In this document: in pieces, positions 1 to 64,000 of the stretch
How the letters are laid out: each line of letters opens with the position of its first letter
How positions within the stretch are numbered: the first letter of the stretch is position 1
Source of the DNA: Nemertoderma westbladi
Lineage: Eukaryota > Animalia > Xenacoelomorpha
Direction: 5' to 3'
DNA length: 64,000 bases
Assembly: GCA_032718475.1 (NCBI GenBank)
Contig: JAUCBJ010000812.1
Span: 11,959 to 75,958 of the forward strand
Translations under genes and position numbers: made by a program
Notes under the pieces: generated by a model
Told to the model about the DNA's origin: nothing
The model's database searches: none
The model's input: only the letters and a program-made list of their open reading frames with translations

Positions 1-600
1 TTTCTTGATACACTACAGGTTAGAGAGGCGGGCTATATATAACAATTGCGATTTATATCAATGTGGTGTGTATTGAATCTAATGTTATTTAGTAGACACT
101 ACCTGAGTCAATTGCTGTTCTCTTTATGTGTGATCAAATATACTGACGGTCGGCAGAATAGTGTGCATGATTGTGAGTGTGATGTGACTGGTAACAAAGC
201 ATTTCCTAAAGAATGCGACTTATACTTTAATCATAAGCCTTATCGTTGCGTTTAGTATAAGTCCTAGCTCTGTTTAAATAGATAGAGCGCCACGTCCTAA
301 AGGAACTGTTAATATTTCCCGAAAGTTAATAATATCTGTCAGAAATTACATATTAGCGATCAATCGAATAATACAGTAGGCTTACACTGCAACCTTACAC
401 TGCAATAATAAAATCTAAGCATCCGAATTCAGCCTCCCGGGTGTAGATCCATCGGGTGAATGATCGCGCATGGGCTGGCTTCGGCTAATGTTTTGTTTAT
501 TAGCATAAAATATTGTCGTATGCTAAAGGTGTGTTAATTAACTAAAAGACATATAAATTTTGGCAGGTTAAACTGCTAAAGGTCTTCAAAAGCGCGAACA
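1..600 (+). repeat. 5' LTR of copy A (3' part only)
   Basis: Appears identical to 10711-11310 (same 69-aa spurious ORF at 46 and 10756); the sequences diverge right after ...AACA. Confidence 0.95.
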
Positions 601-615
601 GTAACAGTTTATACT
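601..615 (+). other. Non-tRNA primer-binding site of copy A (GTAACAGTTTATACT)
   Basis: Abuts the LTR end, has no TGG, and is complementary (14 bp with a 1-nt bulge) to AGTATAACTGTTAC inside the LTR (10556-10569 in the 3' LTR copy). Confidence 0.65.
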
Positions 616-10080: not shown

Positions 10081-11310
10081 TGTAAAAGCTTCTGTGGGAT
10101 CTAACTGGCCCCTTTTGCTTCGCAATCCAGTTTCCCCCCAGGCGCTGGAATACTCTAAAAAGGTTCTCTAACTGTATATATATTCCCCTCGCCCGCAAGG
10201 TACCGTTACAGGTGTTTTAACGGACATAAAAGTCATTCTGCTATATACGTGTTTTGGCGGACATGGTAAGGCAAAAAACCTGCAATGCACCAACTACCTT
10301 TCACAGCTTAGCCGTGATGATTCATATTACGACATCTAACAGCTGGTTGCTGACATGGAAACAGCCAGTGGATGCATGGTTCTTTGTTTGGCTTGAGCCA
10401 ATCAGAGCGATTTTTCCTGTCGACGTGTAGCTTTTCGGCCGATCATAAGGAGAGTGTTCAGTCTTACTGTTTTCACTTGATACTTTGTTGTTATTGCTGT
10501 CTAAGCCAGAAACACCGGCTCTAAGAACTCTAGTAAAACTGCTTAGATTATAGAAAGTATAACTGTTACCGGCGGTGTTACCTCACTTAATTTAACTGCA
10601 CTAATCATATTGTTTGTACTGCTATTTACCGTCAGTTATTAATTGTATCTATTTGTTGATGGAAATATTGCTCTTTGGAGAATACGGATAAATCACCCAA
10701 AATTCCCAATTTTCTTGATACACTACAGGTTAGAGAGGCGGGCTATATATAACAATTGCGATTTATATCAATGTGGTGTGTATTGAATCTAATGTTATTT
10801 AGTAGACACTACCTGAGTCAATTGCTGTTCTCTTTATGTGTGATCAAATATACTGACGGTCGGCAGAATAGTGTGCATGATTGTGAGTGTGATGTGACTG
10901 GTAACAAAGCATTTCCTAAAGAATGCGACTTATACTTTAATCATAAGCCTTATCGTTGCGTTTAGTATAAGTCCTAGCTCTGTTTAAATAGATAGAGCGC
11001 CACGTCCTAAAGGAACTGTTAATATTTCCCGAAAGTTAATAATATCTGTCAGAAATTACATATTAGCGATCAATCGAATAATACAGTAGGCTTACACTGC
11101 AACCTTACACTGCAATAATAAAATCTAAGCATCCGAATTCAGCCTCCCGGGTGTAGATCCATCGGGTGAATGATCGCGCATGGGCTGGCTTCGGCTAATG
11201 TTTTGTTTATTAGCATAAAATATTGTCGTATGCTAAAGGTGTGTTAATTAACTAAAAGACATATAAATTTTGGCAGGTTAAACTGCTAAAGGTCTTCAAA
11301 AGCGCGAACA
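10081..11310 (+). repeat. 3' LTR of copy A (1230 bp, TG...CA)
   Basis: Starts TGTAAAAGCTT like the copy B LTR, ends AACA, and follows the PPT. Confidence 0.93.
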
Positions 11311-12098: not shown

Positions 12099-12100
12099 GA

Positions 12101-17749: not shown

Positions 17750-17941
17750 CCACTGCTTCACGCAAATACATTATTTACCGTTATCTCAACAAAACCTAAG
17801 GTTAGTTTTAATATTTGTAAGAATTAATTTATTTTAAAAATGATTTAAATTTTTATTTATGTGCTATTGTGCTTTAGAATTTCGCTTATAGTACAGTAAT
17901 TATTTTTTTCACAACAATTTATATTATATCGTTAAAAAATA

Positions 17942-20867: not shown

Positions 20868-21089
20868 GTAGGTGCTTTTTTTTTTATTTAAATATTATTT
20901 TTATTATTTTCGGTTGTAGAGTATATTTTTAGATTAATTATAATTTCTTTAAATTTATTTTAGAATTGTTATTTACACTTTTGTACTTTTTTTACGCTTT
21001 GTATTGTATTGTAGGCGTCTTAATCCCACCTTGGGGTTGGGCAGAATCTACTCAACACTTTTTTATTTTTAGAATTTCATGATGATGAT

Positions 21090-23630: not shown

Positions 23631-23717
23631 TACAAAAAATACCGAAAAAAATCTTACTTTTTCATGACATAGTCTCAATATTTTATTGATACTGTAATTT
23701 TTTATTAGCCAACAGCG

Positions 23718-24048
23718 TTGGCCTACACAGTCGGCCTACACAGTCGGCCTACATAGTTGGCCTACACAGTGGGCCTACACACAGTTGGCCTACACAGTCG
23801 GCCTACACAGTCGGCCTACCCTACACAGTCGGCCTACACAGTTGGCCTACACAGTTGGCCTACACAGTTGGCCTACACAGTTGGCCTACACAGTCGGCCT
23901 ACCCTACACAGTCGGCCTACACAGTTGGCCTACACAGTTGGCCTACACAGTTGGCCTACACAGTTGGCCTACACAGTCGGCCTACACAGTTGGCCTCACA
24001 GTTGGCCTACACAGTAGGCCTACACAGTCGGCCTACACAGTTGGCCTA
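23718..24048. repeat. 13-bp minisatellite (GGCCTACACAGTY)n
   Basis: Read directly; ends 40 bp upstream of the exon 2 acceptor. Confidence 0.95.
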
Positions 24049-24088
24049 CTGAGTTGGTTTAATTACATGAAATATTTAATTTTTCCAG

Positions 24089-31515: not shown

Positions 31516-33480
31516 GAGACAGGGGGGGGGGGGGGGGGGGACTGGACGCAAATCCCATCTTGGCGAAATAATATCCCGCCTCAATGTTAAATTCTCAATT
31601 TAGGGAAAGGAGCAGGTTACAGTGGCACGTTATTTTAACCAAAACAATAAACTAAACATAATAGGACAGGAAACAGTTATATTTTTGAGAGTAATCAATT
31701 CCCCTGGAGAGGGATGCAATTTCATTGTGTCCAGATTCCCCCGTATCTGACAATCACAGATGACAACTAATGATCAAATATTAAAATGTAAGCCTACAGT
31801 GTAACTTGTGCCCTTGAATCGCGATTTCGTTATAATAGTCTCTGTCACAGTAATCTGGTCCTTGACCTTTATTAACCGTTGTCGTATGTCGGTTGTCAGC
31901 TGTCGGTTGTCAGCTGTCGGTTGTCTGCTGTCGGCGTAGCGTTTTAAACACGGCGTTTTGGGCTTTGGTCGAAATTAATATTATAGAAATGGCATTATCT
32001 GTTGCACCGAACTGAACGAACAATAAATGTGTGTTAGAAAATATACTTACTGTGTACTTCCATTTCCCCCTTATTAAGTATTTTATACCGCTTGTTTCTA
32101 ACTCAAAAACTGGTACAGTTACAAATTAATTTATTGTTTTGGTTATATTCCGGTCAGCCCTTCTGCAACCTGGGTTTCAGTGAAAATCTGGTATTTTTCG
32201 TATGGTGGTAAACTGCAAAGTGAAATATAACAGCAGAAAGTCTGGTTCACATGGGAATTTATAGGCCTACTTACTGTAGGGTTGGCAGATAACTGCGAGC
32301 GAAACGACATTATTCCAACGTCATAAAACATGGACGAGGATGTATTATACTGTAATAGTCAGATAGGGGGGAAACTGGACGCAATAAAAATTAATCCCTC
32401 TCCAGGGGAATTGATTACTCTCAAAAATAAAACTGTAACCTGTTCTATAAACTTTCGTTTATTGTTTTGATTAAAATAACGTGCCATTGTAACCTGCTCC
32501 TTTCCCTAAATTGAGGATTTAACATTGAGACGGAATATTAATTCGCGAAAATAAAATTATTTGCGTCCAGTCCCCCCACCCCCCCCCCCCCCCCCACCCC
32601 CCACCAATATCTCGAAACAGTAGGCCTAGTTGCGGGATTTTTTTTATTACTTACAGTCCTGTAGTTTGAGCAGGTTGAGTGGACATAATATTGATTTCAT
32701 CACCCACTAAAAATATGCAATACAATAAAAATTTGGTATTTAGCTATGCATGAACGATACCATTATTATCAAGAGACAATATATTTGCTATACAGTACCT
32801 TCCTACTACTGTATAACCTCGTAAAAATCTAATTTACGATTTTATTAAATGATATTGGATCAGTGCCTCTAGTATGTACCAGTAGAGGTTATTCTTTATG
32901 TGTAGGGAGTACTTGCTTGCATAGGGAATGGCAATCTCCATGCACTATCCACTCCTTTTGTGCTTCTTCTGAGTTTAGGCCTAGTAATGTTACTCCTACT
33001 GTAATGTAGATGTACAGCATATACAGTACAAGGCCTGACTGAGATGGTCATATTATATTTACCCAGGGAACTAATTTATTAGCTATTGTTATGAGTTAAT
33101 TAAATTCATTGTGTGTTGTTCCGCTCCAGCCTTCTCTCAGCAGTGCAGATTCATCGTTATTAGTGCACACCGAGTGCGCCCCTACTAAAATTACTGAGTG
33201 GCATGAGAAAGGGAAGCCCAATAATAATTCATTATTTATTATCAATTTCCGAGCATTGATGCGGAGAAGTTTTAAAACACTCGAATTAAATAGGTTTTCT
33301 GAAGAAAATTAATTTATTGTACAGTATTTACTTTTTCTCATATGTGCGTGTAGAATAATGTACTGTGGGTAGCTAGAACGCAACTAATACTAGGCAAAGT
33401 ATATTTTATTTAAATCTAGTCTCTTAACGCAATCATAATCCATTAATCTCCTCAGGATAATAGACCCAAATAAGAAAAAG
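31516..33480 (+). repeat. Left arm of a ~2-kb inverted duplication (partner 59520-61833)
   Basis: Reverse-complement similarity throughout; ORF 33109-33312(+) is nearly identical to 60241-60444(-). Confidence 0.9.
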
Positions 33481-38083: not shown

Positions 38084-38654
38084 ATAACAAGCAGTGATTT
38101 AAGTATAATTATTCAGAAAATGTTCATGTAGAGAATTATTGTATGTATCAGTAATATTTTTTATACTGTCAACAGTTTAATATTTTAAATACTTTCAAAA
38201 ATGTTAAATAACAATGGTTAGATATCTGAGCTAATATTGAACTCATTTATTGTTAATGTGACAATAACGTAGCGTAATGTAAGTTAAGGAGATGTAACTT
38301 AAAGTCACTGTGAAATATATATCATGAAACAACATACATTGAATTTTTGACATTTACATTTACTTTAAGATTTTTATAAAATATATTATTATTGTATAGG
38401 ACCGCTTATATTGTATACATTTTTATTCATGAAATTTAATTACATTTCTAAATTAACAAGATAATTACTATTTATTGTTACTATTTACTGTATTAATTAA
38501 TCATTGCTTGCATCTTTACTCTTGTATATCTTCATTGTTTCTGTTTCATTACCTTCTGTTTATATATAATCATCTTATTTATGTACTGTATTTATTTATA
38601 ATGACAACGACCAATCATGTTCTCTACAAACAGTACTTACCTGATATACATTAC

Positions 38655-38938
38655 CGGTATATACTTTACTTACATCATATATATACTTTACTTATACCAT
38701 ATATATACTTTACTTATACCATATATATACTTTACTTATACCATATATATACTTTACTTATACCATATATATACTTTACTTATACCATATATATACTTTA
38801 CTTATACCATATATATACTTTACTTATACCATATATATACTTTACTTATACCATATATATACTTTACTTATACCATATATATACTTTACTTATACCATAT
38901 ATATACTTTACTTATACCATATATATACTTTACTTATA
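38655..38938. repeat. 22-bp minisatellite (CTTTACTTATACCATATATATA)n, left part
   Basis: Read directly; continues at 57675 on the other side of copy B. Confidence 0.95.
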
Positions 38939-40113
38939 TGTAAAAGCTTTTGCGTAATTAACCGGTTATTTCCCCTTAAAGTACTCTGTAGTTGGTTTAC
39001 CAGGCATAAAAAGGCCGTGTCCTTACTGTACTGGTGTTTTAGAGGACATAAAAGTCATTTCTTCTGTATTTGTACTTTAGAGGACATAATCCGCAATCTC
39101 GTGACGCGATAAGCTAGATACTCTTGAAAACAGTGTCGCTACCATGACGACGGCTAACAGCTGATATTGCCACGTCGACATTTCTTTGTTTCTTTGTTCT
39201 CTCGTTGTTCGGTTGACCAATCAGAGCGTTTTTTGACTCTGTGTTGGAGTTGGATACAGAAACTCAGTAGTTCAGTGTGTTATGTTTTGCCCAGAGCCTA
39301 AGAACACCGGCTTTTGGCACCTCCGTGTTTCAGTCTTTAGTCTTACATTAGTAGGCTTAATTATAGAACGTATATCTGTTATCAAACCAATTCAATGCAA
39401 TTCATACTAACTATGCAATTCATATCTTACTTACTTGCCATATCTTACTAATATTACTGCTTTTACTGTCGGTTATTCATTATATTGGTTGATGAAATAT
39501 TATATCGGAATACTGATCAATAGTCAGACACCCCACCTTCTTGATATACTAAAGGTTAGAGAGACCGGTTACAGATAAACGATTGCGACCTATGTTAAGT
39601 GGTTTGAAGTGAATCTAATGCTATTTTATAGGCCCGACATAAATTGTATGTTGCTCTCTTTATACGTGACCAAATTTAGTGAAGGTCGGCAGATTAGTGT
39701 GCAGTATTGTGCAGCATTGTGTATGATTGTAACTGATAACAAAGCATCTCCTAAAGAATGCGCCATATACGTGAATCTATAGCCTTTTCGTTGTGTCTAG
39801 TTTAAGTCATAACTCTGTTTATATATTTAGAGCGCCACGTCCTAATGGAACTGTTAATATTTCCCGAAAGTAAATAATATTTGTCAGAGATTATATATTA
39901 CAATCAGTCGAATAATACGGTAGGCTTACACCATCAATCATTAAGCTTCCGAATTCAGTCTCCCGGGTATATCCAACGGGTGAATGATTGCGCATAGACT
40001 GGCTTCGGCTAATGTAGTGTATCAAATACTCGTCATAGGCTAAAGACTATATATCATCTAAAAGACATCCTAATTTGGCAGGTTAAACTGTCAAGGTCTT
40101 AAAAGCGCAAACA
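38939..40113 (+). repeat. 5' LTR of copy B
   Basis: Matches 56500-57674; I could spot only about four substitutions by eye. Confidence 0.97.
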
Positions 40114-40124
40114 ATAACAGATAT
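40114..40124 (+). other. Non-tRNA primer-binding site of copy B (ATAACAGATAT)
   Basis: Abuts the LTR end; perfect 11-nt complement of ATATCTGTTAT at 39372-39382 in the LTR. Confidence 0.65.
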
Positions 40125-42404
40125 TGATCTAATCCAGAAACAATAACAGATATTTAGTTCTGATTGCGGTGTAGGCAATAAATACAGTTTAATATTGTTT
40201 TGGTAAAAACAATAACAGATATTGCTTCTGGATTGCGGTGTAAGCAATCTAGTCGAAAGTACCGGTCGACCGGTAACCAGTAGGCCTGACTGCCTGATCA
40301 TCCGGACCGGTACCTACAGTAGTACAGGTACAGCGGTATTATTCGATTGTGGTATTGTATACCGGTAGGCTGTTTAAGAGATTAGGGACTGTACACCCCT
40401 TGTTTCTTTTGGAGCTTACTTATTTCTGTCAGTTTTATTTATTTGTAGGCCAGTATTGAGCAGAAGGCGTGTAAGCCTGCTCAGATTGTACAGATAATTT
40501 GTAGGCTTGACTGTTGTCTAACTGTTGTTAAGTCTGAACGGATTGCAGTGTGTGTAGAGCATCTGTCCGATGAAGTGCTAGTTAGGAAAGTAGGGGCTTC
40601 AAGTGCTGTGAGGTAAACCCCCTGTGAAAGAATAAGTCGTACTACTGGGTTAGAACGCATACTAACTAATCATTTCGGAGTCTGCATATACTGTAGTGTA
40701 TTTGGGCTTGATAGTAGTCTGCCATCGTTTGGTCTGTACTTTGTTTGTGTAGTCTGTACGGGTAGCGTATAATTTTATTTAGATAATTTGTAGGCTGGAT
40801 AGTTGTCTGGCTGTTGTTGGGTTTGAGGAAATTTCGGTGTGTGTAGAGCATCTGTCCGATAAAGTGCTAAGTTAGGAAAGTAGGGGCTTCAAGTGCTGTG
40901 AGGTAAACCCCCTGTGAAAGAATAAGTCGTACTACTGGGTTAGAACGCATACTAACTAATCATTTCGGAGTCTGCATATACCGTAGTTTGTTTAGGCTTG
41001 ATAGTAGTCTGTCAGTATTTGGTCTGCATTTTGTTTGAGTAGTTTGTACGCGTAGCGTAATATTTATTATTCAGAGTTTATGCGATTATTCGCAACATTC
41101 ATTCCCCAAGTTTGTTCCTACAGTAATTGTGTTTGTTATACATACCGTTATAGTTAAACTAACCCCGGTACTACATCAGGGCTGCTCGGCGTAGGTAAAG
41201 ACTGGAGATTTTGTGCTTTGGTCACTCCGGCAGATACCGTGGTTCTTTTGGCTGTTCAAGTATTTTTAACTACTGATTATTTGTTATACAAGTACTTGTA
41301 CCTAATTTAGGGTTTAGTGTACAGTGCTTTCCGAAAGCAATTAGTGTGTAGGCAGTGTATTTGTGTTGTAAAGTGGTTAATAGGCACGTTGGTTCTGGTA
41401 GACCGCGGTAATTAATCTCTAGGTAGGAACACTCCGTGATACATAACGTAGTACCTATAGCGATACGGTTATAGGTCGTCAGGCGGTGGTATTTTCCTAT
41501 CTGGACAGCGCAGTATATTTACTACTACTTATTATTTTCAAATACCGTAGTAACCTGTCCGTTGTAATAACCAGATATTCTAACCCTTTGTTAGGCTGGT
41601 TTGTAGATTCCCTGTAAAATTACCCTAAAAATTCGTATTTGTGTATTGGTAATTAAATTTTTTGTGTTTATTTAGAGATTGTAATCTCAACCGGAATTGT
41701 ACGTAATTTGTAGTATTAAGTAACTTAGTTAAATTATAATTATTTGTTTTAGTGTCCAACAAGTAGCACTCCACTGAGAGCGCACAGCTTATGTGTAGTG
41801 ACTCCCCCAGAAATAATAACATTTATTTCAAACATTGAAAAAACCCATTTCAACGGGTATATATATATTATAAATCAACTCAAACGATTTATAAATAGTA
41901 GGCCTGCCATACAACAATTAGGTCTCAATATCAGTTGGACTACTGCTTAAATAACGGTAATAAAGTAAGTTAAAGTAACCAAGTAACCCTTAAAATTCAG
42001 AAATTCAATTATTTAAAATAATTGATATACCGGTATTTACAATAGGCTTATTATCTTTATTTTCATAAACTTAGGCTGAAATCATACCGGTATTCTGTAA
42101 TTAATTTTAGTTAATAATTATATTTATATATACTATAAGTGTAAACTGCATACCGGTATCCACGATAGGCCTATTATATATTTATATATTTGTGCTGAAA
42201 TCATACCGGTATTCTGTAATTAATTCTAGTTACTAATAATACTTATATATACTATAAGCATACCAGTATTCTAATATTATATATATATCACGCTACACTG
42301 AGTAGCAGTATCGGTAATTAATTACGAGGTTAGCAGTTAATGTTGAATTACTAGACTTGCTTAGACTGTAATATAGCAGTAGGCATTCAACTGTGTAAAC
42401 AAAC

Positions 42405-45400
42405 ATGTCTGATACTAAGCAGAACCTGTCAGACAGTTTATTAGATGCAACTATTTGCGACTCAGATAAGGGTGTAGAACCGTCTACACCTAAGTTCAGT
42501 TCACCTCCCACTGTGAGGAAGGTCATCCCTCCAGTAGTAATAACAGAACCTAGGCTGGTCCAACACCATAGGTCTATCATAGGCACTCGAGCCCAGGTCA
42601 AGCGGGACCAAGAAGCAGCGGAACAGCAACAACCCGCGAGCCAAGAACTTATTTCTCAGCGGCCCAACAGCTCCAGTAGTGAGGATACTGTAGAGCTGAC
42701 ACCTGAGCGCGGAGCAAAGATGACGGATGCGGTTTATTCGGATCCCCTTCTCATCCTTCCTGCAGCCGTACTCACTAGGATATTGATCGCGGTGGAAGAA
42801 CACCAGATCGATTGGGCGAGAAGTAAGCGATCGACTAAAGATAGTTATGCGGGATACACAAAGGAAGAACTGAAATCTATTGTCGAGTCGCAATGGAACT
42901 TCCCCGGACCCGGACTCCCGTTTGATTTATCAGAAGCTGCCTGGGAAGACATACACCGGATGGGAGTAGCCAAGGAAACCATCGATCCAGCTGTGTGGAA
43001 GAGGTCCGCAGCCGGATACGCACAGGGATTCTTCAGCTCTATGGAGCGAGTAAAAGAACAACTGTTTCAACAACCTCAAGGACCTCAAGAGCAGGGACAA
43101 CTGCTTTATCAAGTTAGAGAAAGAATTCTGCGAATTAGGCTAATCTTATCGGCCTTTGAGGAGGCTTCTAAAAGAAGACAAGACACGTCGTTGCAAGTTG
43201 CCGTAAAGACTTGGTTTCAACGGGTGAGTCTCCAAGTTCAAGGAATGGCTCAGTGGAAAGCTCAGCTGGAGGAGCGCTCAACCCATGGAGAATCAACAGA
43301 CGCTACTTTTTCCCAAGTGGAAAGTGAAGCGACGGCAGAGAACCCGCATAAGAGGGATGCCATTGATATCTATCTGTCAGACTATCAACGTTTCTTAGGT
43401 GATGAAGAGTTGAGGAGAAGGTTGGATGGACTTAACCCTAATAGTGAAGGAGCACAGCGTGTGCTTGACGCCATCGACGTGGATAGGTTAGCGGCGAACC
43501 AAGCTAAATTCGATGAACGACTCCGCATCGCTAGAGACCAAGAAGAAAAGGTGAAGAAAAAACGCATAGAAGACAGAAAGAAAGCAGCAGTAGCAGCTGC
43601 AGAAACCGAAAGGAAAGCAGCCGAAGAGGAAAGTAAAGCAGCCGAAATGGAAAGAAAAGCGGCCGCGGCAGAGGCAGAAGCGAAAAGAAAAGCGGCAGCG
43701 GCAGAGGCAGAAGCGAAAAGAAAAGCAGCCGAAATGGAAAGAAAAGCGACAATGGCAGCGGCAGAAGCAGAGCGGATAGCGGCTGAAGAGATCGCCCAAT
43801 TAGAATTGGAAAATATTCAGGAGAATCAAGACTGCATAAATAAACAGTTAACAGCTAGTAATATGCAGATGATGAATCGATCTACTCCCAAAAGACAGGG
43901 ATATACATCATCTGAGGAAGGCGATAACACCGATACTGAAGGCAAAGGAAATAGATCTCACCTAAGCAGACGTAAAAGAACATCCCACCGTCAGAAATTG
44001 CCTGATTTGCCTCCAGCTGTTAGAAGGCAACTAAATAACACCAACTTAGGTAGTACAGAACCCACAGACCAAATAATTACAATAGAGAGACTCCCTACTA
44101 TAGTAGATGAGCCTGAAATAATTAGGCCTGTTCCCGAAGCCACCCTTTCGGTGGTAGAGACACCTGTACTCCCTGAACCTACCTCTAAATTCCCTTTGCA
44201 CAGTACCAAGCTACCTGTGCCCAGCAGAACAGCCCATGAGACAGTTCATGCCCTGGACTCTGAGCGAAATATTCATGATTTGTCGCCCGTTGTCCCTCGT
44301 CCGCCCGCTACAACGTTGGCGAATCCCGCTTCGGCGGTCGAATGGGTGGATGAGAGACGACGGGGGATGGATCTCCTGCTCGGACAGATACAGGAGACCG
44401 TTCAGCAATTCAAGGGCACAGTAAGGGAAAGTAGGCTAGAGTTGCAAGAAGTGCAGCAAAGTATCGCGCTAGAACGTGATAAATTAGTAAATACACAAAA
44501 GGGTATACCACCACCCCCTGTAACAATGTGTCAACCTGTTAGGTCTGAAGTATCTCATGCGCAAGGTGTGGAGCCTACACGCATCTATACTGCTAGCGAA
44601 GTAGAAACTCCTATAGTGAACCCTATTAAGGGTAATTATAGACCTGTTGATAATGATATTCCCTTTAGACCGGATCATAATCCGAGAAATTTATATACCG
44701 ATAACTCGATATTAAATAACACGATGGCCCAAGAAAGTTTTACGCGTCAAATGGCTAGAACCGAAGCCCGGCAAGCAGTAAAGGTGGGAGAGATCGTCAA
44801 GTTCAATGGAGATGAGATGAAATGGTTACCTTTTAATGAATATTACAAAGATAACATACAGAATTCTGTGCTATCTAATGGAGAGAAACTTAGATTCCTC
44901 ATCGAGTGCTTGGAAGGATCTCCCAAGTTAATGGCGTTAAAGTTTATTGGACATCCAGACGGATTAAGACAAGTTTGGGATACACTAAACATCAGGTATG
45001 GTAATAGGAATAACATAGCTGGGTATTTGTATGCAAAGTTGGTAGCGCCCCGAAAGTTTATTAGCAGCGGAATTATAGAGTTTTCCGATGAAATTCAGGA
45101 GATCTGCAGACAATTAGATTGGCTAGGTAAGTCTCATGAGTATCAGAATGCTATGGTTATTAGAGCAGTGGCTTCTACTTTACCGAAGGGTGGAGTAGGG
45201 ACACGCTGGGATAAGAAAGTGTTATATATGATGGAACAACAACGACGAGACCCTACCATGGCTGATCTCATGTCATTCCTAGATGGAGAAGTGAAATTAC
45301 AGCTCCTAAAACTGTCCAGAGAGAAGACACCGGAAAACAAGGTAAGTGAAAAACCCGTCTCTAGGAGAAAGGTAACACCTGAGTGTTATACAGATGACGG

Positions 45401-48400
45401 CGAAAGCCAGACTTCTCAAGGAGAAGATAGCGGGAAAGACACTGACAGATCTTATTACGTAAATAAAATGCCTAAAGATCAGGTAAGTAAATTCAAGTCT
45501 CGAACCAATGACAGGAGAGAACAGGTAAGAAAAACTCCTCCTACGTCTCCCAAGAGAATTCAGGTGAGAAAGCCCGAAGAAAAGACAAGTGTACACAATG
45601 TTACTCAGAGTAAGGTAAGTAACATCAAACCGAAATGTGCGCTATGTGATGGGACCCATCGCTTAAATATGTGTGATGAATTTCTAAAGAAATCATTAAC
45701 TGAGAGACGTGAAGTCATGTGGGATAAGCGGTTGTGTTATAATTGCCTCAGACAAGGACACCAATGGCGAACCTGTTACTCTGACACAAGATGTGCCAAG
45801 TGCGGTGCGAAACATCATATCTTGTTGCACACTGAATTCGAGCGAAATAGTCCGAGTCAGGTAAGTGATTCCGAACTACATGTCCAATTCAGTGATGTGA
45901 ACGACACTGATCAATCTGAGATGGAAGGATTCTATACGGACGAGTTCTCCGACGAAAATGAATCCTGTTACACAATAAATACCACAGTGTATCGAGCACT
46001 CACGTATGAAAAGGATACGGACAGCGACCTTACCCTAACTACTTCTGATCAACAACCATTTTGGAAAGCGCCAACTTCCAATGTAGGGATTAGAGAATTT
46101 CCTGTGGTACAGGTAAGGGTCCACGGACCAAAAAGGAGTTATGTAGTGAACGCCCTCCTTGACTCCGGTAGTACAGGAACATTCATCGACAAAGAGCTAG
46201 CCGAAGACATATTCGCTGGACAACCCAAGTTCCGAACTAAGCTAAACATGTCAGGAATTATGCAAGTTTGGAAATCCACAGTAACAGCGGATTATTATGT
46301 AGGTGCGTTGTCCACCCCCCAGGACGAACTAGGAGAACGTAGCATAAGGTCAGTGAAAATGGTGGCTATAAAGAACTTCGCTACTACCCAAGCAGACCTT
46401 TATAATTGGGACGAGGATGAGAGCATCCAACATCTTAAGATACCTCGATTCCAGACAGATTATCCTGGAGTGCAAATACTCATCGGCCAAAACGCGCATG
46501 AGGCGCTCGAGACATTGGAGAAACGGCCTGCTCAACCGCAGCCACTACAAACCTATGCGGTAATAACTAGAGTAGGTTGGTACTTTACTGGCCCTTCCCG
46601 TAGAACTCTCATGGAAAGATTACCGAAAGATCAGGTATATCAAGTGCGAGAATGGGAAGTTGAGAACAGTGAGTTCGACGATCCAACTGAGGGAACTCCA
46701 TACTCTTCAGACAACGACGATATACATCAACTCTTCGATGAGGAGAATGCCATCGATCTCCTTGAGGAAAGCGAGACTTGGCAAAATCAAGTGAACTTAT
46801 GTCAACTCCTTCTCCCATCCGAGCGAGACGACTATAACGACGAGCTTAATGACGTCATTGAACGTTATAATGCCAAGACTCGGGATGAACACGCCGTAAG
46901 ATTCTTTACTCAAGAGGTTGTAGAGCCCAACTCCTACAATAAGGCCCTATCGGTGGAGGAAGAAAGAGCCAAGCAGATCCAAGCGACAACTACTCGTTTT
47001 CTCAAAGATCAAGGTAGGTTTGAAATCGGACTTCCTTTCCGAAAGCGAGAACCGAAGTTCATTAACAACAGACCTTTGGCAGAGAAAAGAATTGCGCAAC
47101 TACATCGACGCCTTACGGCAAATTCTTCAGCTAAAGAAATGTATCAAACGCAGTTGAAGAAGTTTATTAGCAAGGGATATGCGGAGCTAGTACCGGAAGA
47201 AACACCTATAACGTATTATTTAACTCACCATTACGTTCCCAAACCCGGCAAACCCCATGAAGTACGAGTGGTGTTTGACGGTTCCGCCCTTTATATGGGC
47301 CAATCTCTTAATTCTGAATTGTTACCCGGACCCAACTTACTCCAATCCTTGTTGGGAATACTATTAAGATTAAGACAATATTCCATTGCTTTCGCCTCAG
47401 ATATAGAAGGCATGTTCTTACAAGTCAAAGCGCTGGATAGGGATCGAGATAGTCTACGATTTTTGTGGTGGCCCGAAGGAGACCTCAATAAGAAACCGGT
47501 GGAGTACTGGATGACCATCCAAGCTTTTGGGATAATCTCGAGCCCTTCAAACGCCTGTTCCGTGGTGCGCACTACTGCGGATGACAACAGAGACGCCTTC
47601 TCTAAAGAGGTGATCGACAATATCAAATGAGACATCTACATGGACGATAATCTGAAGTCCCTTCCATCAGTCGAAGAAGCCATTGAGGTCGCTAAAGGAA
47701 CGGTAGAATGCTTAAAGAAAGGTGGATTTCGATTAACTAAATTCACCAGCAACTCCCGTGAGTTTCTGGAGTCAATCCCGGTAGAAGATCGAGGAACAAA
47801 AGACCTAGATCTAATAAAGGATGATCTCCCAGAAACTAAGACCCTTGGTTTGAAATGGGACACAGAAAGAGATATCCTGTTTTTCCAACTAAAACAGCGA
47901 GATAATCCAGTTCGGACTAAACGGATATGTTTAAGTATCCTGAGCACTTATTTCGATCCATTGGGATTTATTAGCCCAGTTATATTAATTGCTCGGAGTT
48001 TAGTACAACAAATGTGGCTTGAAAACCACTCATGGGACGATCCACTTAAGGGAGAATTATTAAAGAAGTGGATGAAATGGGAAGAGTCTCTACCAGCCAT
48101 CGAAAACTTTATAATTTCCCGTTCATATTTTGGTCATGTTCTCCCTACGTATTCATATCAACTCCATGTGTTTGGAGACGCCAGCGATATGGGAATCGGT
48201 ATAGTAGCCTACCTAAGGGTGGAAACTCCGGACGGAATTAAAGTCGCCTTGGTTACCTCTAAGGCATTAATAAACAACAAGTTGAAAGTTCCTCGAGCGG
48301 AGTTAAAAGCGGCTCTATACGCTACAGCCATCGGCCGGAATGTAACAGAACAGATCGACTATCCCCTGGACAAAACTGTCTATTGGACCGACGCTTTACT

Positions 48401-50522
48401 CGTGTTGGAGTATATAACCAATGAAGTCTGTCAGTTCAGCGTCTTCGTTACCAACAGAGTAGCTATTATACTCAGTCGCACGACGATGGATCAATGGAGA
48501 CATTGCCCCGGAACGATTAATCCAGCGGACATCGCTTCCAGGGGAGCAACTCCACAAAAACTGGTAGATACTCCAGACTGGTTAGGTGGACCCGACTTCC
48601 TCTACAAAGAAGAAGAAGAATGGCCTCCTCATCTTACTACAGCAGAAATTAGACAGGCCAAGGGAGCGGAGAAAGTCAAGCCTAAAACTCAGGCGAGTAA
48701 ATCGAAGTTATTCAAACCCACAGTAGATCTGTCTGTACTACATACTTCCGGAGACGACGCTTTGGAGCAGAAACCCACAGCCACAAATAAACCCATTGTG
48801 GAAATCCGTGATAAGGATTGGAAATCTGGTATACCAGACGTCTCGCAAGGACTCTCACCTCTTCTGCAGAGAGCGATGCATCACTACAGTTCCTGGAATC
48901 GGCTTTGTAAGGCCGTTACATATTTAAAGAGATGTTTTCACCATCACTACTCTGGGATGAAAACAAAGGGTGATACCGCTCCAATCACATCAGTGCAGGT
49001 CCATGTTATTAAAGACCTTCCTAAATATAAGGTACCCGACAAGTTTCTGAAGGAGAAGATCAGTTATCAGGAGCATGAAGAAACCAACAAACAGATGCTG
49101 AGACTCTTACAATGCTATGAAGATTCCGATAAGTATTTCCTGTTGTTGAGAAATCCACAGATGCGCTTAAGGGATCGTTTCTCTAGCACAATGATAGATG
49201 GGTTGATACGTGTTGGAGGAAGGTTAACGAATGCCCCATTATCCTTTGATACTAAGTTCCCCATACTCATTAGAAATCTTGAAATACAAGTCAAGATGAT
49301 TGTAGATGTTCACAGCAAACTTTATCATGCTGGTAGAGAACGAGTTCTTAGCGAAATCCGAACTCGCTATTATTTTTATAAACCCCGTAGAGCTCTGAAC
49401 CAAGTTCTTAGGAACTGTATACCCTGTAGGAAAGCATTCAGTAGGCCTTTAACACAGAGAGAGGCAGAATTACCTAGGGAACGAGTAAGCTTTTATGAAC
49501 CACCCTTTACTAATACCGGTGTGGATTTATTTGGCCCTATTGAAGTATATCGTGCTAGGACTATAGTCAAGAGATGGTGTGTAATCTTTGTTTGTATGAC
49601 TTGTAGAGCCATCCATCTCGATATGGTGAACGATTTATCTACCAACAGCTTTCTATTAAGCTTACGACGACAGATCGCTCGCTTTGGCACTAGTAACACG
49701 ATGAGATCTGATAAGGGAACAAACTTCATTGGTGCCAACAATGAAATCAAAGCTTACGTCAAAGATTGGAACCAAAGACAGGTGGACGACCAACTACGAG
49801 TAACAGCGTCTAGTTGGACCTTCAACGCCGCCGACGCCCCTTGGTGGGGAGGAAGTTGGGAGAGATTAATAAGAAGTGTGAAGACGGCATTTCATTTTAT
49901 AGTGCCTTGCCGCGCTTATCTCACCGACGAACTTTTGCGGACGTTAATGGAAGAAATCGCCGTCTATCTCAACGAGAGACCGCTTATGCCAGTCTCATCG
50001 AGTCCCGATTCCCTGGAAGCGCTAACACCCGCGCACTTCCTACTGAAGAAACCTGTAGCCATGCTCCCACAATCGGAAATCACAGATGGAGACGAATACT
50101 GCCGACAAACTTGGCAACTCATGCAGTTGTTATCCCGTCGTTTCGCTGACCATTTCGAAAAACATTATCTGCCCACGCTACAACTTCGAACTAAGTGGTT
50201 TGCGCAGCAAGAAAACGTTAGCGCTGGAGACATGGTTCTTATTGTGGATGTAGATCTTCCACGTAAGAGGTGGCAGACAGGTCGTATCATCGAGACTCAC
50301 ATCTCGGATGACGGTTTGGTGCGATCGGTAGAACTCGTCGTCATGCGACGTAACTTCAAGAAACCGGGAATAGTCTTCGAGACGCAGCAGCTCAATCGCC
50401 CAGTGGGACGTTTATGTTTACTGGAAAGAGACAGAGAACTCTCCGGAAACTATGGGAGACAAGATACTCTTCCCACGACCACCTCCCTAATCCAACAAAC
50501 ATCTAGGGACTCCCCAACTTAA
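42405..50522 (+). CDS. BEL/Pao Gag-Pol polyprotein (~2705 codons) interrupted by one in-frame TGA at 47628-47630
   Basis: ORFs 42405-47630 and 47640-50522 are in the same frame (IK*DIYMDD). Motifs: capsid-like FNGD..W..F/EKLRFL; CCHC-CCHC-CCHH knuckles; ALLDSGS; VRVVFDGS, SDIEGMFLQV, YMDD; RNase H HVFGDAS/RAEL/YWTD/NPAD; integrase HHCC, GVDLFGP, RSDKGTNF, WER. Confidence 0.95.
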
Positions 50523-52168
50523 AAACGGCTGGAGTGGGTGTGTGACCATATTATTTTATATTTGTATTTGTTTTATTTTTATATTTATGTATGTATTATT
50601 ATGTAATTTTATTTTAATCGTTTTATATAATTTTATTTAGTAACATGTTATTTTAGTGATCATTTAGTAGATTAGTGCAATATATTAGTGTTTATTACGT
50701 ACGTAATTACTTATAATATATATTTAGTGCGACGGCGAGAAATAATTATTTTTCTCTTTCCTTACTGTCCGTATCATATTATAAATACGTGACTACAGTA
50801 AGATGAAATATCCGTACTTATTAAAGTACAATAAAGCCACTACTATATTCAAGTATTATTGGTAGGCAGAGTATTAGGAATGCAAAGTTCAGATCCTCGT
50901 GTCTCGGCTCAACCAAGCTCTGGGTAGACCTTGGAAACGACTTGCCTCTTCACACTGACATTGCTTCGTGCGATATTGCTCTCATACCGTATATTAAATA
51001 ATACATATAGTAGCGTGATGTCCCTTTAACAGTAGCGTATAACGCAAATAAATCTGTTAAACCCTTTGACCATCTGTAATTCTAGTCGATTAAGATATCG
51101 TGGCACCCACCGATATACTTGAAAGACAAAATTCTAGAATCAATGGTTAACGTCCCCAGACAAGTTCTGGAATAAACTGGTGCCCATCCTAAATATTAAT
51201 TATTAATATTTACAAAAAAATCTGTCAAATATCAGATCCTTTAAAATTCTAGTCGATTAAGATATCGTAGCACTTACCGATACTCTTAAAAGGACAAAAT
51301 TCCTAGAATCAAGGATCCCAGTCCCCAGACACGTTCTGGAATAAAATTGTGTCTATTTTAATATTAAATAATAAAATTTACGGGAATAAATTTAAATTCA
51401 GATATTTTAATGAATTTAATAAATTGTCATTTTAGACAATTTATAACATTCCCAAAATTCCATTAATTAATAGATCATGGGAGCGGAGATTCACTCTATT
51501 AAGTGTATTTGTGTGCGAGAATCTCCAATGTATAGTCAATAGCCGATAAAATTCATAGAATCATGTATAAAGGGGATATTGACCATTAAAGAATTACTAT
51601 TAAATAGCATCCCAGATCTGTATGCATGAGAATTACCCTAATTCTACCGCTAGCTTTCCATAATGTCACCATGGCAACAACCACGCTAGAATTAGAAGTG
51701 AGTTAAAAGAACAATAGAAGGTATGCCCCATTGAATAGCATAGGGAATAAATAGCGCACTGCTAGTATCCAAGGATACATAATAAATACAGTGACATTCT
51801 GGAAGGTACTGACTAACGGACAAATGGCCCGAATGTGTGCAGTTTGTTGCAGTTGTGTTGAATTTGTGCGTTTGTAGGTGAATGTTACTACTAAGGTGTG
51901 TTTACAGTAGCGAGTCGCAATTGTGAAAGTAACCCTAACTCTCCAAGAAGAACCTGCAGTACATCTAAGCCTTTGGGACGGACAGTGAAGTGACTTGTGC
52001 CGGTTATCGTTGTCGTTGTGTAGCTACATCGTTGGCGAAAGCACAGCGACGACGGTACATCGGCGCTGAGGATCTTACACTGTCCGGGGGCAAAAGAGGG
52101 GTAGGCAGCGACGCCCGCTAGCCTAATATATATAAACTCATTATAATATTGATAAACTCATAGCAGAT

Positions 52169-55100
52169 ATGACTGAATTGTTAGAAGATGATCTTGGTAT
52201 CAGGGAGCGATATACTCTACCTTTACAAGCGTTTGTCGATAGCTTGATACGCGGCGACGCTGGTCCAACTACTACGGAGGATGATGGTCGTTATATCGAA
52301 CCGCCAATGTCCCCGGAGCAACTTACGCGTGAATTGGACTATAGAAAGTTCACCGCTCGCTATACGCATCGTAATGGTACGTATATGGACTTCTTAACTA
52401 CCGGCCATCCTATCGATTTACATGATACGGACGATGTGGATACCGAAAGGGAAATGGTTTTATTTAAATATCATACCCAACGGAATCGGAACGATAAGCC
52501 AAGAATAGAACACGAGAACTGTATTCGAAACCGACTCGAAAGAGAAGACGTTGAAGAACCGGATAAACGCAACGACTTCAACGATTATCTGGAATTCTTG
52601 AGAGAAACATACCTCAATATTGCCAGTCAACAAAATCTCGAGACTCGATATCCTCAAGGTATACATCATGATCCTATGATAGAACTCAAACGACTCTATT
52701 TCACTATGATGTATCTTACCGCCGATCGACCGCTACCTGTTGTCCCAGATAGCTTCGAACAGATGGAGGAATATTGTAAAACTGGAGAACGATCACCCGC
52801 GTTTCCTCTGCAGGACATGCGTCTTTGGTATTACTGTGACGAATGCCCTAGACCCAATCAGCAAACGGAAAGACATAAACATCCGCGGAGACGTTGCGCT
52901 AAACACAGTTTTACACGATATACTTACGGGAGTTTCGAGCGAAACCTGTTCGACGTGTCCCCTGCGGTCGCTCGACTCAAGCGATCCTTGAACAAACCGA
53001 TGATCAGAGTTCCGGAATACTCGGTCAGACCTCCGCATTCCTTAGTCAGACCTCAAACTCTTGACCCTAATAGTATCACGGATCCTCGCGAACTGTACTC
53101 ACTGTTCAAAGATCTAGTGTTACCCGAACAGTTGATCGGTGGCACTCCAGTAGTAGGCTCACGGGACATTCGCCAACCCTACCTAGCTGGATTGGGACGT
53201 GGTCATCTAATATCGCCGTTTAACCCATACAACCGTCCCGGCTTCACCTCTATCCAACCCGTTACGGAAGTCGAAGAGAGCGTCGTACGAAACGCATTAG
53301 ACGCTATTCGGCAGAAAATTGGAAAGGGAACGTACGATTGTTTGGAGAAGCGTAAATTGCAGCAACAAGTCCAAGCGGTGAAGGAATTAGCTTTACCCCA
53401 GTTCGATAGAGAAATACAAAATCTCGAGGAGGACATCGAACGTGGACGAACCTACTCTTTACAAGAGTTTCTAGATGAGCGTCTACAACAACAAGCGGAG
53501 GAGAATCAGCTCGAGGAGAGACATATAGAACTGGATGAGAGAGAAGAAGCGGCTTTAGCTCAACCCGAAGCGCAAATCCTTATGACGGATCTCTACTCTA
53601 AAACCATTCTTCATCCCTCGATGGTTCCCCATTTCGGAGACAAACTTTTTGCGACGGCACAACCCCAACCGGTTGATATCAACCTAAGATCTCGCGATCT
53701 TATCGCCGACGCTCCTCTGTTGCAGCGTCCGCCCATCGAATCCGCTTGTGTCGATGGTATACTCGTTGAACCTCCGGACAATAGAGCAGATCTTGTCCGT
53801 CGCATGGTACACGATGTAAACATACGCGCTAGACCTTTACCGGACTCGTTTTATGGGATCAAAGATCACCCTTATTACGTCAATCTAAAACAATATTACA
53901 TGGTAAAACCGGAAGATCCTACACACAGTCTGAAGTTTCTACCGTTAATAAATCCTCTCGATCTTGTCGATCTCGAACAACTGCAGAAACATCTGGATCA
54001 GTTAGTTAAAGTAAACTCGTTTCGAAAACCATATAATGTTTCCAGAATAGAGAAAGAAACAATACCTCCGTATAATCTTGATGGATTCATTAAAACTCGT
54101 TTAGTGCACTGGAATCTTGATGTGTTATTCGAGGAGGAAAGAATACAACGATATGGAGATGTGGAAACATATACCACACAATATTTAAAGTATAAAGACC
54201 TGCCTAATGCTAGCGAATGTGCTACCTTGTGGCATCCTGTGGGAATGACACTCGAAAACGCCACTAAAGAGTGGAACGAAACTCTTAACGTTATCGAGAT
54301 GTATGGAGTTGTCACTTACGATAATGAAGGTAGCGTTCCGGTTGGAGAACTTGGAACTACGCGGATGATACACATACGAGGACTCGCTGGTTCTACCCAC
54401 GTATTTACTCGAGCGTGTTCCGACGTTATTGATTATTCTTTTAAACTCTTACTGAGACACAAAAGAAACTCCGACATGGACAATTTGAACTCGCGCAGCG
54501 TTACGTCACCGACACCGAGCGCAAACCGGCCATGGGTATCGATGGATCGATGTTACCCCAACCCGTGCTCGAGATGTTGTTTAACGAAAGAATCCTTAAA
54601 ATCGGCTCAGCTGTTTTTGGAGACCTACAGAACGACTTTCGGAATATGGAGAACATTCCATACCCCTTCGTTGATACTCAGCTGATTGCTCCTTGGGCAG
54701 AAGGCCGAGGTTTCTTCCGCACTATGTACGCCAATACACCCAGCGGTATTACTAAAGTACAACGAACCTCCATCGGACATCTTGCCTTTCAAGAATACGG
54801 ATGGAATTTCAAGGTTGGAAATCCTATAAATTACCAACAAGTATACGGAGATCATTATTCTCGTTTATACTTTGATGGACCGTTGACCGCACCTGGCGCC
54901 GTGTATAGCTTTATGAGTGTTCCACTTCGTCCCTCCTTAGCTATATACACGATCTTTGAAAACGCAGCACTTGCCGGTTGGCTAGCCGATGTGTGCAGTC
55001 GTACCATACGCGCCCATCCCTTAATACTCGGAACCAAACTCGCCAAGTTAGATGAACACAATAAATTCATCCGCTTTGAATGTTTCCGGCGCTTTCTGAC

Positions 55101-56421
55101 TCCGTTCCGTAACGTTGATAGTCAGTTCAAGGACCGCGCTCTGACCAAACTCAGCCTGAGAGACTCAGCGGCGGAGAAGCTAAACAGCGCGGGATTTGCC
55201 CTTTTTCAGGACGTTTGTATACAGAACTTACATTCATCTGTTATACAAAGACCCCGAATACCCACGGGTTATTCTGTCGTCGAAGTTCAGACAGTGGGTC
55301 CGCTTGCGGAGACAGCCGCACCTACCTCAGCTATGCAATTGGAAGACGAACCAATATGCTTAGAAGCTGAAGCGATTCAGCCTACAGCGCCCCGGAGCAG
55401 CGATAACGACTACGTCTTAGAGTGGTATCAAGGTCCACAATGTCTCACCGCATACGATTATCGACACGCTAACTATGTTTCTCGAAAACGTTGTCGATTA
55501 TGCGCATCGAGAGACCATTTCACCCCTATGGACTCAGACGTACCCTGCTCCTATTTCCACGAACAACCAATGATGGAGATATATTGTGCGTATTGCAGAC
55601 TTAATAACTCTCATATTTTTGCAGTCTGCCCCCAATTTATGACTCAATGCCACCACTGTCAACTTAAAGGACATGCCAGTTATAATTGCCCCTTTAATCA
55701 TGATTTAGAGAGCGTAGACGAAATGATTACCCTGCGCTACATTCGAGCTTGGGAAGCGAACGCGGATTTACATTGTGAGTCCCGTCATCGATACTACCCT
55801 GGACGCTCTTACGAGGGAGTTTACGCGTTCCATCCTTATTTATTAGCGTCTGTGGAACAAAAAACACGCGTACCGAGTTACGAGCTAATGAAGCGCGTTG
55901 GTGAGTGTATTTCCACTAAATTTGTTCGAAGATACCTTAGGAACGTCAATCCTAACGATATTACTTCATACCATTTGATCAATTATATCCGTCAAGACCC
56001 TGAGTATGGCGATTTATTTATCAACTCGCACCCTGAGTTACAGGAAGTATCTCGACGGCCCTACGAATATCGAGCCCGAGAACGCGAGCTGGAAAGAACT
56101 ATTAAACCAAGGAAGTTTCTCACCACTCACGGTCCACCTACCGCCGTTGTCCAGACGACCCGTCAAGGACCAGTAGGAGCTGCTGTCCTAAGACGCGCCT
56201 TAAAGGCCGTTAGACCTCGCTCCGCTGAAGTTGATATCGATCAACCAGGAACCTCGACCGGCGGATACACCGATCGCAATCCGAAACCTTCTGATGCAAT
56301 TGTATTGCACCCTTCACCCAGGAGTTACAGCCCTCCTAGTAAAGTGGCTCGCCCCAAAGAGAAAAGGACTCTTACTAGCCTCAAAAAACTGCGTAAACGC
56401 CGTCCGCGTAAGAAAGACTAA
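52169..56421 (+). CDS. Retrotransposon ORF2 (~1417 aa if the single frameshift near 54445-54530 is repaired): DEDDy 3'-5' exonuclease-like domain plus three zinc knuckles
   Basis: ExoI VVTYDNEG (54308-54331); ExoII LPQPVLEMLFNERILKIGSAVFGDL; FVDTQ; SIGHLAFQEYG; ExoIII PLRPSLAIYTIFE; then CRLC..H..C, CAYC..H..C, CHHC..GH..C and a basic C-terminus. No signal peptide or TM segment. Both ends are conserved in copy A. Confidence 0.8.
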
Positions 56422-56491
56422 CTGTTTAGAGTATTTTTATATTTTAGAAACTGTGATTTGTTATATTTTATAGACTTAAATCCCATTTTCT

Positions 56492-56499
56492 GGGAGCGG
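56492..56499 (+). other. Polypurine tract of copy B (GGGAGCGG)
   Basis: Abuts the TG of the 3' LTR. Confidence 0.75.
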
Positions 56500-57674
56500 T
56501 GTAAAAGCTTTTGCGTAATTAACCGGTTATTTCCCCTTAAAGTACTCTGTAGTTGGTTTACCAGGCATAAAAAGGCCGTGTCCTTACTGTACTGGTGTTT
56601 TAGAGGACATAAAAGTCATTTCTTCTGTATTTGTACTTTAGAGGACATAATCCGCAATCTCGTGACGTGATAAGCTAGATACTCTTGAAAACAGTGTCGC
56701 TACCATGACGACGGCTAACAGCTGATATTGCCACGTCGACATTTCTTTGTTTCTTTGTTCTCTCGTTGTTCGGTTGACCAATCAGAGCGTTTTTTGACTC
56801 TGTGTTGGAGTTGGATACAGAAACTCAGTAGTTCAGTGTGTTATGTTTTGCCCAGAGCCTAAGAACACCGGCTTTTGGCACCTCCGTGTTTCAGTCTTTA
56901 GTCTTACATTAGTAGGCTTAATTATAGAACGTATATCTGTTATCAAACCAATTCAATGCAATTCATACTAACTATGCAATTCATATCTTACTTACTTGCC
57001 ATATCTTACTAATATTACTGCTTTTACTGTCGGTTATTCATTATATTGGTTGATGAAATATTATATCGGAATACTGATCAATAGTCAGACACCCCACCTT
57101 CTTGATATACTAAAGGTTAGAGAGACCGGTTACAGATAAACGATTGCGACCTATGTTAAGTGGTTTGAAGTGAATCTAATGCTATTTTATAGGCCCGACA
57201 TAAATTGTATGTTGCTCTCTTTATACGTGACCAAATTTAGTGAAGGTCGGCAGATTAGTGTGCAGTATTGTGCAGCATTGTGTATGATTGTAACTGATAA
57301 CAAAGCATCTCCTAAAGAATGCGCCATATACGTGAATCTATAGCCTTTTCGTTGTGTCTAGTTTAAGTCATAACTCTGTTTATATATTTAGAGCGCCACG
57401 TCCTAAAGGAACTGTTAATATTTCCCGAAAGTAAATAATATTTGTCAGAGATTATATATTACGATCAGTCGAATAATACGGTAGGCTTACACCATCAATC
57501 ATTAATCTTCCGAATTCAGTCTCCCGGGTATATCCAACGGGTGAATGATTGCGCATAGACTGGCTTCGGCTAATGTAGTGTATCAAATACTCGTCATAGG
57601 CTAAAGACTATATATCATCTAAAAGACATCCTAATTTGGCAGGTTAAACTGTCAAGGTCTTAAAAGCGCAAACA
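56500..57674 (+). repeat. 3' LTR of copy B
   Basis: Matches 38939-40113. Confidence 0.97.
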
Positions 57675-57836
57675 TTATACCATATATATACTTTACTTAT
57701 ACCATATATATACTTTACTTATACCATATATATACTTTACTTATACCATATATATACTTTACTTATACCATATATATACTTTACTTATACCATATATATA
57801 CTTTACTTATACCATATTGTATACTTACTTATGCCA
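57675..57836. repeat. 22-bp minisatellite, right part
   Basis: Same unit as 38655-38938. Confidence 0.95.
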
Positions 57837-58341
57837 TCTGATAATTATTCCAACATCGAGGTTGTACCTTGTACAACTTCCATGTTAACACCGAGGTTTA
57901 CGTTAAGTGTGTTTCTCTAGCAATGATCGTGATCATACACATTCTGACATATTATGACATATCATATATTATGACATATTATTATTATATCAGACTCTTA
58001 CTCAAAGCCCGTTTAGATTTCGCACAGGTTATTGCTATAAATAGAAAAACAGATTCCCCAGCTCCAAGCTCTGTGTTCTAAACAGCAGTTTCTAAAATCT
58101 CTAAATCTAAATTCGCAGTTCAAACTAAAATCCTCCACTAATATTGTAATAGTGTTGCAGGCTGGGCATATACTTTCAGAGATATATCTTTTTGCAGAAC
58201 ACAGCAGAACACAGTAGAACACAGCAGAACACAATAGAATACAGGCGGAACATAGGCGAACACAGCTGTAATTAAAATCTACACCAAAAAATAACACACT
58301 TAGGAAAGTACCGGATTTAATCATACAACTGTAAGATGTCA

Positions 58342-63856: not shown

Positions 63857-64000
63857 AATCAGCAAACACGAGTTGTAATGATCAACTACACGTAATAAAG
63901 ATAATTAAATTGGGTTTCCCTCACGGATTTAACTCGTATACTGTTGTATGATAGCGTGATTATCTGACAGCGATACGTCAACATGTAGGCTCAACTGTAC

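Follow-up and report, generated by a model that had tools for sequence, protein, structure and literature searches.

Self-priming of reverse transcription is already published for lineages of two LTR retrotransposon superfamilies, Ty3/gypsy and Ty1/copia. In Tf1, according to passages of PMC7175516 and PMC4600332, the transcript's first 11 bases pair with the element's primer binding site (PBS), the cut by RNase H falling between bases 11 and 12. A tRNA site is lacking in Tf1 and Tf2 of Schizosaccharomyces pombe, in Tj1 of S. japonicus, in the Tf1/sushi group and in Tcn1 (Ty3/gypsy), and in these elements an LTR segment of about 11 nt is the complement of the bases that directly follow the 5' LTR, with LTR-leader stems nearby. 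Passages of PMC6317226 predict self-priming for Tcn1 and the TAR elements from an LTR complement of at least 10 nt located 0-5 nt after the 5' LTR; the TAR lineage (Houba, Osr-1) is plant Ty1/copia, and those passages mention no internal competing partner. For BEL/Pao elements, the ICTV Belpaoviridae profile describes genomes of 4.2-10 kb with a PBS of 18 nt that matches the 3' end of host tRNA-Arg or -Gly (PMC8742986).

The window analysed here, a 64,000-nt stretch of animal DNA with a cadherin-repeat ORF, holds two copies of one LTR element, A and B (Table 1). Copy B spans 38939-57674 (18.7 kb), and its LTR boundaries are fixed by the presence of two LTR copies, identical at 1171/1175 positions, and of the target-site duplication (TSD) TTATA. 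Its gag-pol is a single frame, interrupted within the RT region by one stop (47628-47630), that carries in order DUF1759, an aspartic protease, Peptidase_A17 (1.4e-36), an integrase zinc finger and DUF5641; this domain set makes it a BEL/Pao element. PF05380 and PF18701 were found in all of the best 69 of 120 listed homologues, and no protein relative was closer than about 40% identity among the matches listed. Copy A, which runs from the window start to 11310 and is about 76-88% identical to B, is a deleted copy missing most of the RT-to-integrase region and most of the extra ORFs; its LTRs are identical over the 600 bases present twice. The family is very abundant and diverse in its host, with 12,112 contigs of run X1 matching the 1.8 kb of LTR plus leader. 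Domain set and order, TG...CA LTRs of 1175 and 1230 nt (family range 0.2-1.2 kb), the 5-bp TSD and the polypurine tract are all Belpaoviridae-like, or Semotivirus-like, and Pol gave no chromodomain match, whereas the Tf1/sushi group is Ty3/gypsy chromovirus. The element departs from the Belpaoviridae profile in having no tRNA 3'-end site, and copy B, with a 2.3-kb leader and two extra ORFs, is outside the 4.2-10 kb range.

Table 1. Features of the two element copies and one further ORF, in window coordinates.
Feature	Position	Strand	Remarks
Copy A 5' LTR, 3' part only	1..600	+	start outside window; Q at 189-227
Copy A primer binding site	601..615	+	9 exact pairs, bulge, then 5 more, the pair at 614 private
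Copy A 3' LTR	10081..11310	+	1230 nt; P 10555-10571, Q 10899-10906 and 10930-10937
Single-exon ORF	17936-20932		six cadherin repeats, protocadherin-like
Target-site duplication	left 38934..38938, right 57675-57679		TTATA, 5 bp
Copy B 5' LTR	38939..40113	+	1175 nt, TG...CA
P, putative self-primer end	39372..39382	+	exact complement of primer site; 39368-39384 when extended for Q pairing
Q1, first half of P's internal partner	39734..39741	+	pairs with 39377-39384, two pairs past the predicted primer 3' end
Hairpin between Q halves	39742..39764	+	predicted three-way junction
Q2, second half of P's internal partner	39765..39772	+	pairs with 39368-39375
LTR segment predicted to pair with leader	39905..39940	+	kept in copy A with other letters
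Primer binding site 1 of copy B	40114..40124	+	begins at first post-LTR base, no TGG
Primer binding site copy 2	40143..40153	+	last five LTR bases directly 5'
Primer binding site copy 3	40212..40222	+	last five LTR bases directly 5'
Copy B gag-pol	42405..50522	+	DUF1759, protease, RT, Peptidase_A17/RNase H, integrase, DUF5641
Extra ORF 1	52169..54685	+	838 aa; no Pfam family, no atlas match
Extra ORF 2	54532..56421	+	629 aa, rich in Cys and His; search found no homologue, a weak lead (0.80) points to CCHC proteins
Copy B polypurine tract	56492..56499	+	
Copy B 3' LTR	56500..57674	+	P at 56933-56943, Q at 57295-57333

The original prediction stated that neither copy has a TGG after its 5' LTR and that the bases found there are instead complementary to the element's own LTR. 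The first point holds for the first bases after the LTR of both copies and, judged by its sequence, the primer site excludes a host tRNA 3' end as primer. The second also stands for copy B, where 40114-40124 is the exact reverse complement of 39372-39382 over 11 nt, a match of at least this length from the first post-LTR base being reached in 13/5000 dinucleotide shuffles. In copy A, for which P was taken from the 3' LTR since the window start cuts the 5' LTR, 601-615 does pair with 10556-10569 with one bulge, but the 15-nt pairing claimed for it was overstated: the C at position 614 is private to this copy, an A making up 98-100% of contig depth there in four runs, and the A-type pairing family-wide is therefore 9 bp, a bulge and 3 bp. 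A complement of at least 9 nt from the first post-LTR base arose in 42/5000 shuffles of A. Measured against the published rule of at least 10 nt at 0-5 nt, as worded in those passages of PMC6317226, copy B qualifies (11 nt, offset 0), whereas copy A has 9 nt and qualifies only with its bulged extension. The register in which the 3' end of the putative primer pairs with the very first base after the LTR was borne out in both copies, the best complements of A and B occupy the same LTR alignment columns and P is the best LTR site for the primer site in each copy. What did not survive is the picture of P as an isolated match in a barely alignable LTR: it belongs to a block of 23 nt, 20 of them identical between A and B, flanked by 30-column blocks that are 13-57% identical, while most of the LTR's 3' 570 nt is 57-97% identical.

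That A and B differ in their primer sites and that the LTR partner changes in step was also upheld. There are two differences within the first 9 P-PBS pairs and both are compensatory, an outcome expected about once in 500 by simple combinatorics; the predicted duplexes are worth -10.6 and -13.5 kcal/mol with each copy's own partner and -6.1 and -5.9 kcal/mol when the partners are swapped. These are the only two phased P/PBS pairs in the family, the contig variants being unphased. A chance match of 9-11 nt in an AT-rich, 1.2-kb LTR, kept by shared ancestry, might be thought sufficient, as matches of at least 11 nt to the own LTR occur at 6 places in B's 16-kb interior (3 of them primer-site copies) and at 8 in A's, and as a permissive test (any GT..AG junction, offsets 0-3) was not significant for the window LTRs on their own (B 17/200, A 54/200 shuffles). 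The fixed position, the homologous site in both copies, the compensatory changes and the recurrence in 8/9 distant relatives (see below) already largely refute this explanation, and we regard it as very improbable.

Variation across the family was read from contigs on A's primer site in four runs from three studies. Position 1 is G/A polymorphic (11-35%), while no variant reaches 2% at any of positions 2-7. The invariant core raises the possibility that a host RNA fragment, such as a tRNA half, primes there and that the LTR match is secondary; the complement of positions 2-7 may resemble the tRNA-Asn anticodon loop. Precedent for half-tRNA priming exists in Ty1/copia, as noted in passages of PMC6317226. 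Six pairs are too few, however, positions 1 and 8 track the LTR and not a fixed host sequence, and the primer-site letters of distant relatives are unrelated to one another while each set matches its own LTR, so that we consider priming by a host fragment quite improbable. On the LTR side, contig depth in run X1 falls from 261,788 in 39327-39387 to 1,376 in 39388-39448, and contig joints depart from the reference at 39383-39391; with the collapse and the joints falling right after P, conservation stops at the predicted primer 3' end.

Two features were missed by the original prediction. One is that the primer-site module is triplicated in copy B, with further copies starting at 40143 and 40212. 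Repeated modules are not peculiar to copy B, because a back-joint runs over the module in contigs of run X5, which may be an RNA run, and loose ends occur there in X1 and X3. The spacer before the third copy (40193-40214) repeats the LTR end and the start of the primer site in inverted orientation and is predicted to form a hairpin; it is the kind of trace that a DNA-synthesis fold-back might leave.

The other is the internal partner of P, which we call Q and which is split into two halves by a hairpin. All 16/16 P-Q pairs are present in both A and B, with three both-sided changes and one one-sided change between the copies, and each of the three A/B differences in the 23-nt P block is matched on the Q side; slid controls retain 2-9/16 pairs. 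RNAalifold predicts the P-Q helices unprompted. When the LTR plus leader of B is folded, P lies on Q and never on primer site 1 at equilibrium, and forcing it onto a primer site costs 9.5-21.8 kcal/mol; in longer LTR stretches of copy A the Q1 half alone stays paired. The primer site itself resembles Q with the 23-nt hairpin swapped for one G. If self-priming here resembles that of Tf1, the standard LTR cycle would recopy the primer site from the primer every time. Covariation between P and the primer site would then be automatic, whereas that between P and Q needs selection, and P-Q is therefore likely a functional fold, one that may hold the primer or serve as the substrate for its cutting. 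Searches of Rfam over the B LTR-leader and the A LTR returned chance-level matches only, and hence no known ribozyme, and by eye the P-Q junction lacks hammerhead core motifs.

This fold weakens the argument that priming alone conserves P, and it counts against self-priming in that P-Q by itself explains the conservation of P, including the bases beyond the 11. In one alternative the pairing is purely structural: P would serve in the LTR fold, or in a switch that acts over long range in packaging, dimerisation or translation, and a protein or a host RNA bound elsewhere would be the actual primer. This is the alternative that we take most seriously, even if we think it unlikely. P-Q exceeds P-PBS in pairs and in compensatory changes and wins in folding, and further predicted LTR-leader stems are conserved in both copies: 39905-39918 is predicted to pair with 40336-40349, 39921-39940 with 40160-40176 or 40230-40246, and an A-specific LTR insertion with A-specific leader bases. 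A structural role leaves unexplained, however, why the complement starts at the first post-LTR base in A and B alike, and in 8/9 relatives at an offset of 0-3 nt from the LTR, why its register is the place that a tRNA site occupies in one relative (L002), and why TGG was lost.

Copies A and B agree far more closely in the 3' half of the LTR (39548-40113) than in its 5' half; the 3' half gives no Rfam match and contains several predicted hairpins, including a UUCG loop near 40003. In the non-coding, 2.3-kb leader of copy B (40114-42404) there is a tandem duplication of about 290 nt (40497-41069 in B, 892-1472 in A) that is about 82% conserved between the copies.

Comparable material came from a profile scan that yielded 80 BEL/Pao loci from metagenomes, 27 of them with an LTR-like repeat on both sides. 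Nine had a readable LTR end and were used; the other 18, cut by contig ends or collapsed, were left out. Within the nine, the 3' LTR of L009 ends at the contig end, the LTRs of L004 are 74% alike and the end in L031 was set by eye. The relatives are distant, with Pol 31-38% identical, and yet a self-complementary primer site of 10-12 nt, starting 0-3 nt after the LTR, was found in 8/9, each complement being reached by at most 2/200 shuffles. It is contiguous in L004, L044 and L067. In L009, L012, L025, L031 and L037 it is assembled across an intron junction in the LTR, and all five junctions have a GTAAG donor and a pyrimidine-rich YAG acceptor, though any GT..AG was allowed; L025 has two candidate donors, the first of which alone yields the match. 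The ninth locus, L002, has TGG at +5 and no self-complement, and is thus of tRNA type. As a cross-control, 2/110 mismatched PBS/LTR pairs also reached 11 nt. A blind scan without a fixed LTR end gave matches in 6/26 loci against 1.6 expected (8 more loci being too short), which is supportive but weak, two of the matches being one element and one lying in the tRNA-type clade. Seven of the self-complementary loci form one clade (FastTree 0.996; IQ-TREE quick tree 88) with L002 outside, L025 having been left out for a missing part; the window element is a long branch, nearest to L066 at 42%, that the trees did not place.

An exon-exon junction matching the primer site was also seen in L014, L015 and L027/L028. 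L028 and L074 each present a whole element head-to-tail without mismatch and with one LTR shared, which could be an assembly artefact or reflect one-LTR circles. Pattern scans for the LTR found nothing in viral or metagenome contigs, and protein scans of viral contigs gave no matches. A splice-junction primer was considered for the window family and rejected, no junction beating the contiguous match in A or B; the copy B LTR has no GTRAG donor.

The relatives also bear on where P lies in the transcript and on the fold. TATAWA is present upstream of P in 4/8 self-complementary relatives and AATAAA/ATTAAA downstream in 6/8, at 7-91 nt, which places P in R, well inside the transcript, in these elements. 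Where there is a TATA box, the complement ends about 120-290 nt of DNA downstream of it, a distance that makes a longer 5' fragment, not just the transcript's first 11 nt, the probable primer. An internal mimic of the primer site was reached by 1 to 87/200 shuffles per locus (Fisher p of about 0.005 over the 8 loci), weak in single loci and no more than a hint that the switch is general among the relatives; in the same single-duplex test the window copies were not significant (3/60 and 9/60) because their Q is split.

We favor the possibility that the family self-primes, minus-strand synthesis starting not from a host tRNA but from a piece of the element's transcript that a cut at P's 3' end has released; self-priming, already put forward in the original prediction, is still something we infer, but it is the best one available and we consider it probable, given that 8 of the 9 distant relatives carry self-complementary sites with unrelated letters. 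A plausible scenario is as follows: (i) the transcript would start upstream of P in the 5' LTR, so that P lies in R; (ii) P would first be held by Q in the predicted resting fold, or the fold would present the cut site; (iii) cleavage directly 3' of P, probably by the element's RNase H if Tf1 is a guide, would free a 3'-OH, leaving P at the end of a 5' fragment of more than 11 nt; (iv) P would anneal at the first base after the LTR and prime the copying of about 730 nt of R-U5; and (v) P would be restored from the 3' LTR, while plus-strand synthesis would copy the primer, making the primer site follow P automatically. Such primer copying could explain both A's bulge and B's repeated primer-site modules. 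That P is transcribed and cut, by which enzyme and in what order the switch runs, are steps that we infer. Against this reading, should the motif directly upstream of P be a TATA-like box, transcripts from the 5' LTR would not contain P; nor was any conserved canonical polyadenylation signal found in copy B.

Self-priming might also draw its 3' end from another source: a small RNA that the P-Q duplex releases in trans, a short transcript of the 5' LTR, or the 3' LTR's P at the 3' end of the genomic RNA. Within the P-Q helix the predicted end of the primer falls two pairs short of the helix end, P is present in both LTRs and the sequence directly after P is hypervariable. The polyadenylation-like signal downstream of P in six of the eight relatives indicates, however, that the RNA 3' end is not at P, and we judge such a source improbable, if slightly less so than a host fragment. 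A broader proposal goes beyond cutting of the transcript at P in this one family: in a widespread BEL/Pao lineage, tRNA priming would have been replaced by self-priming under an LTR RNA switch, in which the primer segment is held by a primer-site mimic within the LTR (in this family the co-varying three-way junction), cut or released and then moved to the true primer site, and sister families would splice the same primer. We offer this only as a tentative possibility.

The likeness to Tf1 drawn in the original prediction holds for the complementarity between the LTR and the bases that follow the 5' LTR; conserved LTR-leader stems are also predicted near the primer site in both copies. In other respects it does not. 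P ends 731-741 nt before the LTR end, and the primer, unlike that of Tf1, probably exceeds 11 nt and probably differs from the 11 nt at the start of the transcript. A stronger, split internal partner, Q, competes for P; it accounts for part of the conservation of P, and priming requires its displacement. The primer-site module occurs repeatedly, and in the distant BEL/Pao relatives the complement can be assembled across a splice junction. The C. elegans element Cer7 reportedly encodes its own tRNA-like primer. As for novelty, the original prediction knew of no description of self-priming in BEL/Pao, and we likewise found none in the full-text literature searched, though subscription papers, Repbase/GyDB entries and supplements may contain one; term look-up in PMC554778, PMC6238403, PMC3118150 and PMC2774666 returned no PBS or tRNA passages. 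The TAR elements mentioned above belong to another superfamily and kingdom.

If our reading is true, self-priming would extend to a third superfamily of LTR elements, here in an animal setting, and its form would depart from that of Tf1 through a longer primer, a decoy partner within the LTR and, among relatives, assembly of the primer by splicing. It would explain the missing PBS in many BEL/Pao families under tRNA-based annotation, and such elements might become independent of the host's supply of tRNA and escape defences that target tRNA sites. It would also bear on the order in which hairpin and tRNA priming arose in LTR elements, a question posed in a passage of PMC3601003. The natural A/B letter pairs would make the switch directly testable on non-coding RNA fragments.

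Several other features of the window deserve mention. The two extra ORFs lie in overlapping frames between pol and the 3' LTR, are present in part in copy A at 8953-10002, and neither resembles a known env by Pfam. No tRNA gene was found in the 64 kb. Copy B is inserted in a 22-nt tandem array that continues on both sides (38582-38938 and 57675-57880), and other tandem arrays lie at 12037-13320, 23687-24080 and 62563-63900, with units of 36, 13 and 18 nt; the long ORFs over these three arrays are probably by-products. A 2-kb repeat occurs twice in opposite orientation (31528-33480 and 59521-61835), 88-98% identical, and is probably another mobile element.
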